A DNA stretch of 64,000 nt, taken from the NCBI GenBank assembly GCA_045837725.1, contig JBEWZL010000118.1:1-64000 (forward strand). Reading direction: 5' to 3'. Positions 10,631 to 41,625 of this stretch are shown here, in pieces; position 1 is the stretch's first letter; each line of letters opens with the position of its first letter. Made by a program: the position numbers and the translations under genes. The DNA is from Vermamoeba vermiformis (Eukaryota). Under the pieces are notes generated by a model, which did not search any database, was not told where the DNA came from, and saw nothing but the letters and a program-made list of their open reading frames with translations.

Positions 10631-11269
10631 ATGAAGAAAATTACGATAGCGTTGCTCGTGGCTACATATGCTTTCTTTATGGCTAGTGGCTATGTCTACC
10701 TAGTTGCCCCTACTACACCGAAGGACTGCCAGGCGAGCGACTACAGCTTGGGAATTGAGATCTCACCTTTGGAATGCACTTACACCGTAGATACGAGTAC
10801 TCCACCCAAATTTTCGCCATTTTATGCCATTGCCACTTGCAGCAAATATTTTCTTTATGAATACAGCTGCGGAACTACGGATATGTGCTCGAATCCTCCG
10901 TACTTTTGCACAGAATTTAATACTATGCCTCTTGGATGCAATAGCCATGATAATTTATATTATAGCTGCTATGATGATTATGCAGAGGCTCTAGCTCAAC
11001 TAGGAACCTCATCCTTCGTACAGATCGCCGAATCCAACGTTGATCAATGCAGCAATGTGGCCAACTACAAAGTCTATCCTATTAATAAGTGCGTCGAAGC
11101 GCTCCACCATGGCGACGAATGGCCTGCAGTGCAATATAAATGCAACAGCACGCATGTAGCGAAATCTTTTTTCTATGACGAAGGGTGCAGAAAATTCGCT
11201 TTCCTCGAATATCATCAATTGAATACTTGCGAGGGTCAAAGAAATATTTATACTTGTCAAGGGTACTAG
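10631..11269 (+). CDS. Secreted cysteine-rich protein (intronless, 212 aa)
   Basis: Signal peptide MKKITIALLVATYAFFMASG; many spaced Cys; AATAAA immediately after the stop. Confidence 0.75.
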   Translation: MKKITIALLVATYAFFMASGYVYLVAPTTPKDCQASDYSLGIEISPLECTYTVDTSTPPKFSPFYAIATCSKYFLYEYSCGTTDMCSNPPYFCTEFNTMPLGCNSHDNLYYSCYDDYAEALAQLGTSSFVQIAESNVDQCSNVANYKVYPINKCVEALHHGDEWPAVQYKCNSTHVAKSFFYDEGCRKFAFLEYHQLNTCEGQRNIYTCQGY

Positions 11270-11486
11270 AATAAATAAAAATTAATTATTGATCGTACCC
11301 GATCTGGATCCACTACTAATCTCGTCGCATTTTGCATGCAACATTAACCAGTAGAAAATTCGGGATTATACTATTAAATAGCGTTGAGCAATATTTGAAA
11401 ACTAAGCACCATTTCGGGTGTCAATTTCAAGCTACATCCGTAAAATTGCGATATTTACATTCAGTTCAACTTACATCGAGTCTAAT

Positions 11487-20169: not shown

Positions 20170-20374
20170 TATTAAGAAATAATAGTGTTCTGGATGCAAG
20201 TACGATATTGATAAGGTACAGGCAGACGTGTGCTATTAGATTCTACACAAAAAATTTTTTATTGCAAAATACAGAGAAAAGCATTATTTAATTAAAATGT
20301 GACTGTTGAATCACCGATATCGGGTGAATAGAAACGCTCTGATTCTTCAGTTTTGAAATTAAAGAAACTTCGTT

Positions 20375-20829
20375 TGTAGTGCACTATTAATTCATCTGGC
20401 ACGTGAAACTCAGTATGTTGAATATTTACTTTGAGTAGCCGGTTGGGGTTTTTCGGCTAAGTTAGTAGGATTTTCGGAGTTGGTGAATGATTCGTTGATC
20501 TGCTAATGTAGTAGAGTGTAGTCATGGATCTCGCAAATTCTACGGGCAATACCATACCAAAACGCAAACTTTCCGTAGAGGCCCTATGGCGCTCTTTGGC
20601 GCTGTGCAGATCCACGCGAATCAGATCTGGCGGGTCGCTTTTTCGCGATTGAAGAGCAGGCTGTATGCGTTTGATGGCGAAATCTCGTTCAAGCTTATTG
20701 TTCGTCCCCGTTCATTCAATTGTACCATGTGTAACAACGCTGTTTTATCCAGATCGAAGCTCAAATCGTTCGAAAGCGCTGTTTACTGCTGCCGTTTGCG
20801 GGAATCGAGGCTCTTTGCCGTGCACTGTG
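20375..20829 (+). ncRNA. Candidate ~455-nt multi-branched, pseudoknotted RNA, class unknown
   Basis: Terminal helix 20375-84/20820-29; hairpins 20437-58, 20462-20506, 20539-79, 20585-20606, 20633-50, 20654-20703; long-range stems 20525-31/20608-14 and 20624-30/20749-55; G-U pairs consistently on +. Confidence 0.6.
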
Positions 20830-20940
20830 TATTCTAATGTTTATTCTTCTGCCTAATGATTTAATTGGCGCTCTTAAAATACGCTGACCAGCTTTGCTAC
20901 AAAAATAGACGGAGTCCGGCATTATTATCGCTCACTAGAA

Positions 20941-23390: not shown

Positions 23391-23534
23391 ACAGTTTGAC
23401 AGTCACATAACTCCTGATACTAACGGATGTACACTTAAAGTTGGATCCAACACTTATGATCCAACAGCCCGCAATCATTTGACCCACGATGATTCCATAG
23501 TTTTTTTTGAATCGTTGTGATCACTGCACCTCAT

Positions 23535-23677
23535 AGTAGTTATGATAATAGATGACTACTGTAACAGTGCACTATTAGGATTGCGTGATGCAGCCTAACA
23601 TTGGAATTCCGCATGATTTCCGCATGAAACAACATACATTCGGCTAGGTGCTGTCTTGAGGTCGCCCTGTTACAACT
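23535..23677 (+). ncRNA. Candidate structured RNA, class unknown
   Basis: Stems AGTAGTTAT 23535-43/ATGACTACT 23552-60 and TGTAACAG 23560-67/CTGTTACA 23667-74; inner TTAGG..CCTAA hairpin; shares motifs with the 7.7 kb and 20.4 kb elements. Confidence 0.4.
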
Positions 23678-36363: not shown

Positions 36364-38167
36364 TTAACGAGGGGTGTTGTTTCTATCGTAGATAGCTTGA
36401 GCCATATCCTGTTGCAAAGTAGGATTGTCTTGGATCAAGTCAGCGATCGAACCCAAAGTGTAAGTGACGATAGTAGGGTTTTTGACGATAGTTGCAACCC
36501 AATCTCTCCATTGATCAGGCTCGTACAAAGCAGGGTTACCACCGAGCAAGCGAGTGTTTTCAGAGCTGTTCTCGCTGTAGCGGATCTGCAATTGGCGTCT
36601 GAGGTCCTCGCGCATCTGGTTGAACGAGAAACCGAAACTGATGCCACCACCGCCAGCATCACGCTTAGTGTCACGCATGTTACCGTCGTTGATACCAATC
36701 TTAGCACGTTTGCCTAAATTGCCACATTAACACAGGATCTTCTAAGAACTAGCAGATGTGACTTACCAGGAGCAGAAGGGACGGCAGTGGTGCGAGTAGG
36801 AAGCTTAGTGCTGGGAGTAACATCTTGAGTAGGGTCATTGGTGGGAGTGTTAGTAGCAGGAGCATCGCTCTTGGGGGTAGTTCCGTAGCTGAAAAAACAA
36901 ATCCGTTAGTTCAACTCTTTAACATCATATCTCGTTACTAATGAGCCACGCGAATATAATAGAATATTTATATTGTCTTTAGTGCTTACCTGAAAGAAAT
37001 ACCGAATTGGGTCTTGACGTAATCCTCATCGAGCTTGGTGAAGTTGCGGATGTCGGCCAACTCTTCACGGCGAACAGTACCACCCAATTGGGCTTGCATG
37101 ACGTAGTGAGTACCGAAGTAGTCGAAGAATTGGAAGAATCTAACATATAAGGTTAACGCAAAGTGCAAAAAAATTCGGCCGATCTGCCGATCAGCAGCGG
37201 ATGACTCGAGACTTACTGAGCCTTAGTCGCTTCAGAATAACGAGGCAATCTTCTTAAGAACTCGCGGCAAGCATAAGATTGCTTCAACAAGAATGGAGGG
37301 AACAACTTGACGTCGTAGAAGATGTGTTGCTGCTCGGTAACACCGTATCTGTAGTTGCGGTTGTCTTGAGTGAAGCTAAACCGATAGACATTAGTCATAT
37401 GCTCGCATACACTTATAATCTGATAGATAAAGCGTGATTGGATGCAAGGTCATACCGAATCTGGCGAGTCTCCTTGGTGTTAGTGAACGAGAACATGTTG
37501 CCCAAGTTCAAGCTGATACCAGTAGAGCGAGCCTTGGTAGTACGGAACTCGTCGACAGTGTTGAACACCTATATTATTACACGTAATTAGCATCGGTAAA
37601 CATTTAGACGTTTGGCGTGTGTCAAATCTATCCGAGCCAAATTTTCATTATTAATTATTCGGAATTCAAATATTAGCCCTTTGCAATTAAAAAATAGTAT
37701 ATGGCTACATTTAAAGCCAAACTACTAATACTGCGAGTCTACGGTGTGGATTTGAATAAAAAAGTAACAAATTTCGCTCGCAACCAAATCAATTAATATA
37801 GTTAATTCGACCCGCAAATAATATTCTATTATGATAATTGAGAGCCTTAAGATGAGGCGCAAATAATTTCAAAGCCAAAGAGGTTCTAGAAGCAACTTAC
37901 ATTGGTTGTTCTGTTAACGAAGGTATCAGGAGTAGAGATAGAGTCAATCTCCATAGGAATCTCGTAGTCCTTATCATCATAAGGAGAGGTGAAGGTTTTG
38001 CCCAACCAAGTCAATTCGATGGGAGACATCTTGAGTTGCATGGTGACAAGATCGAAACCAATGCCAATCTTGTCGACACCGCGGAGCTTAGGGGCGGGTT
38101 GACCTCCATCAAATTGAGCCAAAGCACAGGCCACGAAAGAAACAAATAACAATGTGCGGAGTTGCAT
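36364..38167 (-). CDS. Secreted MACPF (perforin-like) domain protein
   Basis: Signal peptide MQLRTLLFVSFVACALA; IGIGFDLVT N-terminal motif; MACPF signature FFDYFGTHYVMQAQLGG; LLGGNP...WRDWVATIVKNPTIVTYTLGSIADLI. Confidence 0.9.
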
Positions 38168-38445
38168 CTTGGAACGTTGGAGACTGTTGGATTAGGACGC
38201 TAGAATTCGCTGGATCGAATTCAAGGTGTGGTCTCTAGGTGCAAAAATAAGTAAGTTTGAACAGGAAAAAATATCGATTTTGTTTTTACCTTGCAACTGT
38301 CAAACATGTTTTTTCCATGTTGACATTTGTCTGTCCGGTGATTCATTGGACGGATCCCATTTAAATTCACACCTTGTACGCGATTAGCGCCTATAGTAAA
38401 GTGTCAAACAATGCTTACGGGTGAAAAACTTGCTTACTGAAAGGT

Positions 38446-38750
38446 TGGTGCCATTCCGATTTCGTACAAGCCCGTTTGGTGATCTGATTTGAAGTCGCTT
38501 GAAACCGCAGTATGGTGCTATGATACGTATTTGATGACGTTTTCAAGCTTACAGTAAGCGTGCGAGTGCATTTTTGAGTACGTTTTGATTGACATAATTG
38601 ACGTTGTCTCGCTTCGTGATCTGGTTTAACCGGTTAAATTGCAGCTCATGGTGCAATATAATCTGTTTTGTGCAACATGTACAACAGATCACGTAGCATC
38701 CCATCGTTCGCACGAACTGAGGCTCGTCTTATCTTGAATAGTAGCGTCAG
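38446..38750 (+). ncRNA. Candidate structured, pseudoknotted RNA resembling the 20.4 kb element
   Basis: TGGTGCCAT 38446-54/ATGGTGCTA 38512-20 crossed by GCTTGAAA 38497-504/TTTCAAGC 38541-48; perfect CGTGATCTG 38615-23/CAGATCACG 38685-93; TTGACGTTG 38598-606/TAGCGTCAG 38742-50. Confidence 0.5.
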
Positions 38751-38856: not shown

Positions 38857-41625
38857 TCACTTGGTCTTGTTCTTCCGTCTCTCCCTCTCCATGTCTCGAA
38901 GCACATTTCGCTGGATCTTGCCTGTGGTTGTCATAGGCAGCTCTTTGACGAATTCAATTTCGCGCGGGTACTCATATGCTGCGAGGTACTTCTTAACGTG
39001 CTCTTGCAAACTCTTTTTAAGCTCGGCATCCTCGACGGTACCTAATTTAATTCAGTTCGTTAGTTTGGGACCGCGATGAACAGTTATTGCGCTAGCATGC
39101 ATAATAATTGAATACCTGGCTTCAGTACGACGAATGCCTTAACGATTTCTCCGCGGGTTTCGTCGGCTACTCCAATAGCAGCAGAGAGTGCTACGGCTGG
39201 ATGGCGCAGCAAACAATTTTCAATTTCAGAAGGACCTGCGAGTATAGCATAATTAATACGCATTACGTATTACGATGTTTGAGGAGGTTATCGCCTCATT
39301 AGCGATGAAATACCTATCCGATAACCAGAGCATTTAATAACGTCGTCAGATCTGCCCACGAACCAAAAATAGCCTTGTTCGTCCTTCTTTCCTAAGTCGC
39401 CAGTAACTAGCCAATCACCGACGAACTTCTTTTTCGTCGCTTCTTCATTTCTCCAGTATTCCAAAAACATAACCGGATGTGGCCTTTTGACCGCAATGTT
39501 ACCCGATTGTCCTGCTGGCAATACTTTGCCCTGGCATATCATTAGACTATAGTCAGCGTTGCATATATTTTCTTACTTTATCGTCAATAATATCGACAAT
39601 GGCGCCGGGTGTAGGACGGCCAATAGATCCGGGTCGAACATCCATAATCGCCGAGCAATTGCCCAACAACAGGTTAGCCTCTATAACGATAGGTTAGCGC
39701 TTCGTATACTAGATGGCAGTGTAAGGTTGTGCACGTACCAGTTTGTCCATAGAACTCGTTGATGGTCACCCCGAATGTCTTCTTTCCCCAGTCGAGCAAC
39801 TCTTGTCCGAGACTTTCACCACCGCTGCCAATGCTGTACATGAATTTGCTTGGCGGAATGTTGTGTTGTCTCATCAACTTGAGTGCTGTGGGTGGCATGA
39901 ACGCGTGTCTTACTTTGTGTTTCTCCATCAACTCGAAGCTGAAAGTGCATAATGTGAGTCACTATTAGCTATCTAAGTCGCGCTTAACGTACACGAAGTT
40001 CGGGTCGAATTTACGCTTCGATCGATAGGCTAAGACGGGAACACCGTGATGCAGAGAAGGTAACAAGACGTCGATTAAACCGCCTATCCAGGCCCAATCC
40101 GCAGGTGTGTAGAACAACAGCGAGTCATCGTTGTGCTTCGGAAATAGATTGTGAGGGAATTCAACTCCGGGGAGATGTCCCAACAGTACACGATGTGCGT
40201 GAAGGGCGCCTACAAAGCGGGTCAGAAAATTATTTGGAGGTGCTATTAATTGTTTACCTTTTGGAGGACCAGTAGTACCCGAGGTGAATATAATAATGGC
40301 TGGATCTTCGCTCGATGTTTTCATCGTCGTGAATCTGTACGGCATCTCCGTGATCAACTCGTCAAACTTGACGATCAATTTGCCAGCTGCTTTCAATCTA
40401 CGAATATGGACATAAGATAAAGCAAGTTATAATCAAAGCTTACGTCTCCATAGTGCGTCTATTTAATCCCGTGGAGCTGTAATCTGTAACGACAATAGTT
40501 TCCAAATTAGGCAGCTCATGGCTTAGCTCAGCGACTTTTTGCAAGTCCTCAGCGTCAGTTATCAATATTCTGCAGCAAATAGCCATTAGCTCAAAGAAAA
40601 AAAAGAAAAAAGGGCTCGCGGACCTCGCGTACGTACCTAGCCTCGCTGTTATTCAATCTGAATTTGATAGCTTCGTGGCCAAACTGCGTAAACAAAGGGA
40701 TAGCAATGCAGCCTATTTTATACGCTGCGATGTGGGAAATCACTAACGGAGAACTCGATGAGAATATACTCCCAACTTAGTAAAGGATCCGCTCTCACTT
40801 ACCAGTTTGAGGGCTCTGCGTCAATAAAATGCCTATTCTATCTCCTTTTTTAGCGCCATACTTTTCCTGCAGAATGTAGCCCAGTGCATCAGAGTACTAG
40901 CATTAAAAAGTTAGTTCAACGAATTGAGTGGATTGGCGCGGCGTGCGAGGTACCTTCTTTAGTTGATTAAAGTTCAAGTTGATTGTTCTGCCCGACTCAT
41001 CTTCATATATGATGGCTGTATTAGCGCCGTAGCTATATAAAGAAGAATAATTAGCGAATTGAATGTTGCTGAGCTGCTTAGTCTACATGCTCGCGTCCAA
41101 AGTACTTACCCATTCCTGATATGCTTATCACATATATCATCGCCGATATTATAGTACTCGGGAATATCCCACTTGAATGCTGAATAGATATCTTCGTAGC
41201 TTTTGCCTTGTGGTAGAAGCGGGAAGCGTTTGGGAGCTAAAAATAGGCAATATATTAGAAATTATGTTATCGCGTAGTCGATGTGCTGCAAAATGCTCTG
41301 TCTTAGCAATTTGTTAAAGCAAGCTATCAATGCATCTATTTTATTTACCTTGACTTGCCAATTTTCGTCTCCTCTGAGAGCGCAATGAAGCCGAGGGAAC
41401 AGCTATTCTAGAATGATATTTAAAATTAGATTAATATTTTGCCTTGTATGAAAAGATAACAAGATAAAAAGAAATCTGGCCAGATTCGTCCCAAAAGACA
41501 CTAAGGCGGCATCCTATTTACCTCGTGCCCAACACGCGTTTAAATATTCCTATTGCCAATAAATATTAGTCTAAGGCACTGGAATGGTTTTTCTATTGAT
41601 CCGTACTTGACCCAAAAGATAGCAT
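38857..41625 (-). CDS. AMP-binding acyl-CoA synthetase (acetyl/medium-chain type), probable mitochondrial presequence
   Basis: [42 protein letters not shown]...[28 protein letters not shown]; Arg-rich N-terminus starting MLSFGS. Confidence 0.9.

Follow-up and report, generated by a model that had tools for sequence, protein, structure and literature searches.

A structured noncoding element that has not been catalogued is probably present between two protein genes in the Vermamoeba vermiformis DNA analyzed here, a stretch of 64,000 nucleotides (contig JBEWZL010000118.1, positions 1 to 64,000) that is called the window below. This element, B, lies on the + strand at 38431-38729. Our best overall explanation, which we prefer tentatively, is that B is an RNA gene, that a second noncoding element about 18 kb away (element A) is an old paralog sharing its core, and that both act in the manner of scaffolds. 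A preliminary description had reported an ordered series of short motifs common to A and B and interpreted the two as members of one family of pseudoknotted elements. Its observation holds in part, and its interpretation has partial support.

Setting and fold of element B

Element B is located inside a 690-nt gap between two - strand protein genes, within intron-rich eukaryotic DNA. Its parts and neighbors are the following.

36364..38167, - strand: gene of a MACPF-domain protein (PF01823, E 4.7e-9 on exon 36364-726; putative exon joining)
38299..38354, + strand: two strong hairpins upstream of B, which may be the 5' part of B or a separate promoter-side element
38431..38560, + strand: core of B, in which P1 (38431-39/38552-60) encloses P2, a P3-like stem-loop-stem, P4 and a small hairpin
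38446-54/38512-20, + strand: P2-like helix of 9 pairs, 3 of them G-U, the first crossing stem of the preliminary description
38457..38497, + strand: P3-like arm with an 8-pair stem, an internal loop and a distal stem (pairing probability 0.48)
38497-504/38541-48, + strand: P4-like helix of 8 Watson-Crick pairs, then GCTTA, the second crossing stem of that description
38542-51, + strand: TTCAAGCTTA, the longest exact word of the collinear chain common to A
38570..38577, + strand: A-U5-G stretch between the two domains, similar to an Sm site without the 5' purine (found with a loose pattern, not with the strict one)
38600..38729, + strand: 3' domain, in which a 9-bp helix (38615-23/38685-93) closes a three-way junction
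38629-665 and 38668-84, + strand: long arm and short hairpin of the 3' domain, followed by a hairpin (38706-17) and closing stems
38857..40426, - strand: 3' part of an AMP-binding (acyl-CoA synthetase-like) gene (PF00501), tail-to-tail with B and ending at 38857

The reported position of B just upstream of the opposite-strand MACPF gene was correct. The start codon of that gene (38167, -) is about 280 nt away, and the MACPF match itself falls in a downstream exon. The first exon carries RNA reads. Two distinct versions of it (38050-38210) were seen in sequencing run X18 and also in run X11, which suggests diverged alleles, paralogs or mixed strains, and its occurrence in viral contigs was confirmed in 0 cases. 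The exons of the AMP-binding gene share 74/78 and 57/64 residues with a Vermamoeba vermiformis EukProt protein. The best named non-amoebal relatives of this enzyme are bacterial, with about 60% identity, and one other amoebozoan match occurs among the 120 matches listed; an old gene transfer is possible. Elsewhere in the window, 60765-62228 (-) encodes an intronless 487-aa right-handed β-helix protein with a signal-peptide-like start, which is unusual in an intron-rich region.

The folding of B was examined by domain. In the 3' domain, the z score was -5.4 on the + strand versus -1.7 on the - strand for 38600-730, and -7.2 versus -3.3 for 38610-700. The three-way junction ranked first of 5112 GC-corrected 100-nt windows, and the helix probabilities of the domain were 0.94-0.99. 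Taken whole, the fold of B was no better than chance (z -1.1). P1 of the core had a pairing probability of 0.78, the z score of the whole 5' domain was only -1.3, and the P2-like helix had a probability of 0.01 in a model that allows nested pairs only. The two crossing stems of the preliminary description can indeed both form, but as a crossing pair they do not stand above chance: an equally good pair arose in 17/300 shuffles of 38440-552, 52/300 of 38428-565 and 118/300 of 38425-735. The P1-P4 model of the core also costs 6.6 kcal/mol before P4 is added.

Sm sites follow the consensus RAU4-6GR and lie between hairpins. Element A has no Sm-like site, even with the loose pattern that detected the stretch in B. 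Strong folds (z -3.2 to -5.2) were also seen at 52781-52880, 23481-23600 and 11256-11380, within intergenic DNA or close to it, and no motifs shared with A or B were seen in them. Both strands of the region 63330-63745 fold strongly; it contains several hairpins, has an almost perfect palindrome near 63486-63504, and looks like a transposon end.

Variation, reads and homologs

Of 21 run entries, 17 cover part of the window, and four were compared (X18, X5, X10 and X11). The evidence from X11 is one contig of depth 3, in which errors are possible. This contig was identical to the window at 38303-371, had 38372-424 (53 nt) swapped for 8 letters, and differed from it across 38425-596 (172 nt) by 6 substitutions and 3 gap letters. 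Its link with a more diverged MACPF contig of the same run is similar depth alone and was unused as a rate estimate. One of the six differences listed for the core falls in P1-P4, which take up 67 of the 130 nt (p 0.10), and the P2-like helix was identical. Three differences were located in the distal P3-like arm (38475, 38480 and a deletion at 38488). By inspection, the differences at 38480 and 38536 strengthen local hairpins. T38542C breaks one edge pair of P4, and G38536T destroys a TTTGATG word common to A and B. The 1-nt deletion in the core argues against coding. We rejected A and B as protein genes, because none of the five open frames tested had a significant Pfam match, the 59-aa frame of B had no homolog, and the relative of A described below carries radical residue changes.

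No reads over 38374-841 were found in RNA run X18 (13 million records), in which depth on the exons flanking B reached about 75 and 8. The strain of this run is clearly diverged in exons, with 81/110 aligned reads less than 90% alike. As the library selection is unrecorded, the absence shows only that B was not abundant there. A partial read of X18 (depth <1) lies within 38299-38371, the region of the two upstream hairpins. A contig of run X5, with its end at 38729, sits entirely inside B; because this run is probably DNA, the contig was not counted as expression of B.

Searches of known families and other genomes were largely silent. Rfam gave 0 matches at the gathering score in the whole window, and at E<=10 only chance-level matches, 1 over B and 2 over A. 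The window contains no tRNA, and model, fold and repeat searches revealed no third family member within it. Four patterns had 0, 4, 0 and 7 matches in viral contigs, all 11 of which failed to align to the window; matches numbered 0 and 0 in prokaryotic genomes and 0 in phages. A metagenome scan yielded 87 matches, and among the 86 loci screened the best blastn E was 0.22, which was taken as chance. In literature searches, which mostly left subscription journals uncovered, long structured RNAs of Vermamoeba or tubulinean amoebae were not found described, nor was a report of an amoebozoan telomerase RNA. The accessible text of the V. vermiformis genome paper (PMC7125106) has no mention of non-coding RNA, ncRNA or telomere.

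Some of these results would also be expected if B were a cis-element or a relic, either the fold of a read-through or promoter-associated transcript of the flanking genes or a decayed non-autonomous mobile element. The missing reads in X18 fit this, as do the existence of other strong hairpins in the window and the lack in B of a Pol III-type run of at least 6 T, a TATA box and a B-box pattern. However, the fold of B favors the + strand, opposite both neighboring mRNAs, its sequence was kept in X11 while the adjoining 53 nt were replaced, and the window contains neither another close copy of it nor a long direct repeat. We consider this origin quite unlikely and retain the view that B is probably a structured RNA element in its own right.

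Element A and its relation to B

Element A, at about 20320-20860, lies between two divergent genes with F-box-like first exons (named by eye). The word TGAATCACCG occurs only upstream of A (20307 +) and of B (38336-38345 -), in opposite orientation, and CGGGTGAA precedes both A (20321 +) and B (38418 +), the B copy being deleted in X11; both are possible promoter words. The features of A are as follows.

20542..20705, + strand: proposed counterpart of the B core, with P1 (20542-49/20698-705) and P2 (20560-66/20666-72)
20649-53/20688-92, + strand: P4 of the A core; TTCAAGCTTA is at 20688-97
20586..20783, + strand: part visible in the relative P0125, conserved at 20586-705 and 20736-783 and diverged at 20706-735
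20750..20813, + strand: 3' motif series CAGATC, GAAGC, ATCGTTCG and GAAnnGAGGCTC, matching B at 38685-725

The 112-codon open frame of A retrieved a single relative in both searches, P0125, which is a spurious 68-residue ORF. Mapped to A, P0125 shows at least 7 changes in the 168 nt of the conserved blocks versus 12 in the 30 nt of 20706-735 (Fisher p 4e-7). Its radical residue changes and its earlier frame end imply constraint on a non-coding sequence, not on a protein. Element A had no folding signal on the + strand (z -0.35 to +1.3). Its core model lies 2.4 kcal/mol above the free minimum, with a P4 of 5 pairs (-1.2 kcal/mol) and a pairing probability of 0.00 for the short hairpin. The minimum-energy arm of A (20645-53/20715-23) was discarded, as 4 of its 9 pairs are impossible in P0125. 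Two forced changes in the relative, G20667A and T20701G, break a pair of P2 and of P1 unless they are compensated upstream, beyond the coverage of P0125. G20667A shifts A toward the sequence of B.

Two registers relate A to B. The first is the motif series of the preliminary description (20615-830 with 38600-750), and all of its motifs were found: GATCTGG (20624 and 38618), CAGATC (20750 and 38685), G(A/T)AGC, ATCGTTCG (20765 and 38703) and GAAnnGAGGCTC (20802 and 38714). Rarity in the window is limited to the last two, ATCGTTCG with 3 copies and GAAnnGAGGCTC with 2, the latter in A and B alone. Counting both strands, there are 15 copies of GATCTGG, 87 of CAGATC and 218 of G(A/T)AGC, and the loose pattern TTGT-N5..11-ACAA occurs 13 times per strand. 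GATCTG and CAGATC are moreover the two strands of one helix round a palindrome and thus count once. The ordered series is therefore real as an observation, but its significance is only modest (p 0.002-0.05, uncorrected). Block chains as good as the observed ones appeared in 19, 45 and 50 of 1000 shuffles and in 58, 108 and 149 of 3162 real windows; for exact-word chains the counts were 7, 16 and 108 among 3000 pairs of real sequence drawn at random. A plain local alignment reached a score of 52, with a null of 41.8 +/- 7.8 from 430 windows.

Two motifs of the series were not kept in the relative of A. GATCTGG is altered to GATCTTG in P0125, where the helix persists only if 20750 is A (codon-compatible), and the TTGT hairpin falls in the diverged block and is lost. 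P0125 is compatible with CAGATC, GAAGC and ATCGTTCG (to 20783), and GAAnnGAGGCTC is beyond its reach. The reciprocal check with structural models failed, since single-sequence covariance models of A and B did not find each other convincingly. The model of the B 3' domain had 13 matches at E<=10, A not among them, and among the 42 matches of the model of the A 3' half, B came 21st and 37th (E 5.8 and 8.9). With nhmmer, A versus B gave E 11-32. Single-sequence models are weak, so their failure lowers the kinship of A and B without excluding it. The paralogy put forward originally is plausible but short of proof. The motifs are the weaker part of the evidence for it, and support comes from the second register.

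The second register joins the cores (B 38431-38560 with A 20542-20705) through GATCTG, GTCGCTT, GCnGTATG, TTTGATGnCG and TTCAAGCTTA, followed by the 3' motifs, in local and block alignments; MAFFT reproduced only the TTCAAGCTTA block. For the extended chain (20600-830 with 38470-740, ranges picked after inspecting the data), 2, 3 and 9 of 1000 shuffles did as well, as did 0, 2 and 10 of the 3136 real windows. Chains over the whole elements were matched by 4, 18 and 81 of 1000 shuffles and by 13, 20 and 138 of 3000 random pairs. With one of the three gap settings, B ranked first of 3106 windows for A. In B the GATC helix is located 3' of the core; in A the corresponding 5' strand falls upstream of the core or inside it.

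The helices of the B core follow the order P1, P2, P3, P4, P2', hairpin, P4', P1'. A descriptor of this order, with thresholds chosen after A and B had been seen, gave 13 matches from 249 anchors; B ranked first among them and A shared 7th place. Only B (7 nt) and A (12 nt) had a P4-to-P2 gap of at most 15 nt, the next being 40. The descriptor is loose, with 5.1 matches per shuffled strand and 39 matches in 1256 strands scoring at least as high as B. At fixed anchors, A forms an 8-pair P1 and a 7-pair Watson-Crick P2 at the offsets of B. The null rate was 236/200000 and 179/100000 (0.12-0.18%), or 550/20000 (2.8%) without the P3 anchor; these rates are optimistic, because the thresholds, again set after the fact, are A's own values. 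The 5' strands of P1 and P2 in A are unrelated in sequence to those of B, as in fully compensated helices.

These data could also be read without kinship. B would then be a real structured RNA, mainly its 3' three-way junction, A a separate conserved non-coding element, and their common words the product of chance among several registers. The failed covariance and nhmmer searches, the several mutually exclusive A/B registers, and the loss in relatives of two motifs of the series and one word of the core register all point this way, and the chain p values of 0.002-0.08 would lose significance once a few hundred intergenic pairs were compared. Against it stand the in-register P1 and P2 of A, the first rank of B for A, and the restriction of GAAnnGAGGCTC to the two elements. 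We rate chance similarity as possible but somewhat unlikely. Judging from two sequences and post hoc tests, we lean toward A and B being paralogous and sharing a knotted core.

Two orphan conserved elements with such a core would provide a first handle on this RNA family, and the core register yields base-level predictions at 20546, 20565 and 20750.

Comparison with known RNA families

Several families were set aside. The 5' hairpin of 7SK RNA contains GAUC/GAUC helices, and the likeness to this metazoan RNA lies in such helices and in a length of about 300 nt. However, the Rfam model was silent, and the B helix 38615-23/38685-93 is unbulged, without the flanking bulged U's of a HEXIM site; 7SK was rejected on these grounds. 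The accessible part of 10.1101/2023.02.19.529146 places HEXIM in animals and their close relatives, other groups having no more than patchy HEXIM-like sequences. Box C/D snoRNAs, including U3, which carry box C (RUGAUGA) and box D in a terminal k-turn, were rejected for want of RTGATGA in A or B and of an Rfam match; the TGATGA at 38532 in B is altered in X11. Group I/II introns, IRES and SRP RNA were dismissed by eye against their known motifs, with Rfam silent.

Telomerase RNA offers more points of likeness. Telomerase RNA cores have the same helix order as the A/B core, and the P6.1 of telomerase RNA has 4 pairs. Like telomerase RNA, B places a three-way junction after a closed, knotted core, has a P3-like element beside the knot and an Sm-like stretch, and left no reads in a library of mRNA type. 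In contrast, the short hairpin has 6-7 pairs instead of those of P6.1, B lacks a template, and A has only a non-canonical candidate, ATACCATACCA (20549-59). This 11-nt stretch, a 2.2-copy 5-mer, sits in the linker between P1 and P2, at the position that a telomerase template would take, with a slot chance of 231/63960. If it were the template, A would be the telomerase RNA of this amoeba, whose low abundance would fit the missing reads, and B a template-less paralog. However, the implied telomere repeat would be unusual, and 20674-77 can pair with part of the candidate. By eye, U5 precedes P4 in A, but the U-A polarity in P4 looks opposite to that of the triple-helix arrangement known at the pseudoknot junction. 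The template should hold 1.5-2 telomere repeats 5' of the pseudoknot (accessible part of PMC4993307). Neither A nor B contains a CCCTAA/CCCTAAA-type template, and the available text of PMC3622300 deduces TTAGGG as the ancestral telomere repeat for Amoebozoa. We find this identity very unlikely, and return to the reading of A and B as noncoding paralogs.

The closest architectural parallel is with RNase P and RNase MRP. The order P1-P2-P3-P4(5')-P2(3')-hairpin-P4(3')-P1(3') of their C-domain can be drawn for both A and B, with a stem-loop-stem P3 and a P4 3' strand that ends in GCUUA right before P1, and here too there would be two paralogs per genome. The CR-I patterns GGAAnnTC and GAAAGTC are absent from both strands of A and B. 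Strict CR-V is also absent, although a 15-mer of B matches 5/6 consensus positions. A and B differ further in having no single bulged U, P5, or six- or eight-nt CR-IV, and no specificity domain (P7-P14, CR-II/III). Their P4-P2 gaps are short, and a large domain is appended 3' of P1. Between P4 and P2 no GARAR was found in either element; B has AGU there and then P2. Since the catalytic and substrate-binding hallmarks are missing, we did not file A and B as RNase P or MRP.

According to the accessible parts of the published descriptions, the helix order of the RNase P/MRP catalytic domain is that of the B core (10.1101/2020.03.17.996132, PMC2996960), the P4 pseudoknot of nuclear RNase P is made by CR-I and CR-V, and RNase P and MRP are two paralogous RNAs (PMC2996960). 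RNase MRP has a P8 pentaloop GARAR, a 3-bp P5 next to CR-I and a six-nt CR-IV (PMC13184271). It is conceivable that A and B are themselves the RNAs of RNase P and RNase MRP in a very divergent form, since these are likewise two paralogous pseudoknotted RNAs, of 300-550 nt (accessible text of PMC2996960), with matching helix order and the CR-V-like 15-mer of B. We judge it extremely improbable: Rfam is silent even at E<=10, CR-I, the specificity domain and the P4-P2 GARAR loop are absent, CR-IV as given in the available part of PMC13184271 was not found, and RNAs that abundant normally leave reads.

In the explanation that we prefer, B would be a stand-alone noncoding RNA gene of about 300-430 nt, presumably transcribed from the + strand between the protein genes, with a 130-nt core knotted by a putative pseudoknot and then the very stable three-way-junction domain. 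A would be an old paralog that kept the core (P1, P2, the P3-like arm and a P4 pseudoknot ending in GCUUA) and the 3' motif series, its periphery having diverged. Both may act as non-catalytic scaffolds for protein assembly, built like the RNase P/MRP catalytic domain. Their P3-like loop would load Pop1/Pop6/Pop7-type proteins, as in the yeast telomerase RNAs, and the B 3' domain would bind a stabilizing or specificity protein. The yeast RNAs TLC1 and TER1 carry a P3-like Pop6/Pop7 site outside RNase P/MRP, according to the accessible part of PMC13303942. By this analogy, a Pop-protein scaffold is the likeliest role for A and B, though its overall probability is low.

A bolder possibility, which we consider improbable, is a third, tubulinean branch of the RNase P/MRP superfamily. 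It would combine the P1-P2-P3-P4 core with a domain 3' of P1 in place of the specificity domain, and its members would be Pop scaffolds or altered ribozymes, A possibly being an amoebozoan telomerase RNA. If the core does derive from RNase P/MRP, a ribozyme family with two eukaryotic members so far would be extended, and the two elements would bear on how the P3-like module entered telomerase RNAs.
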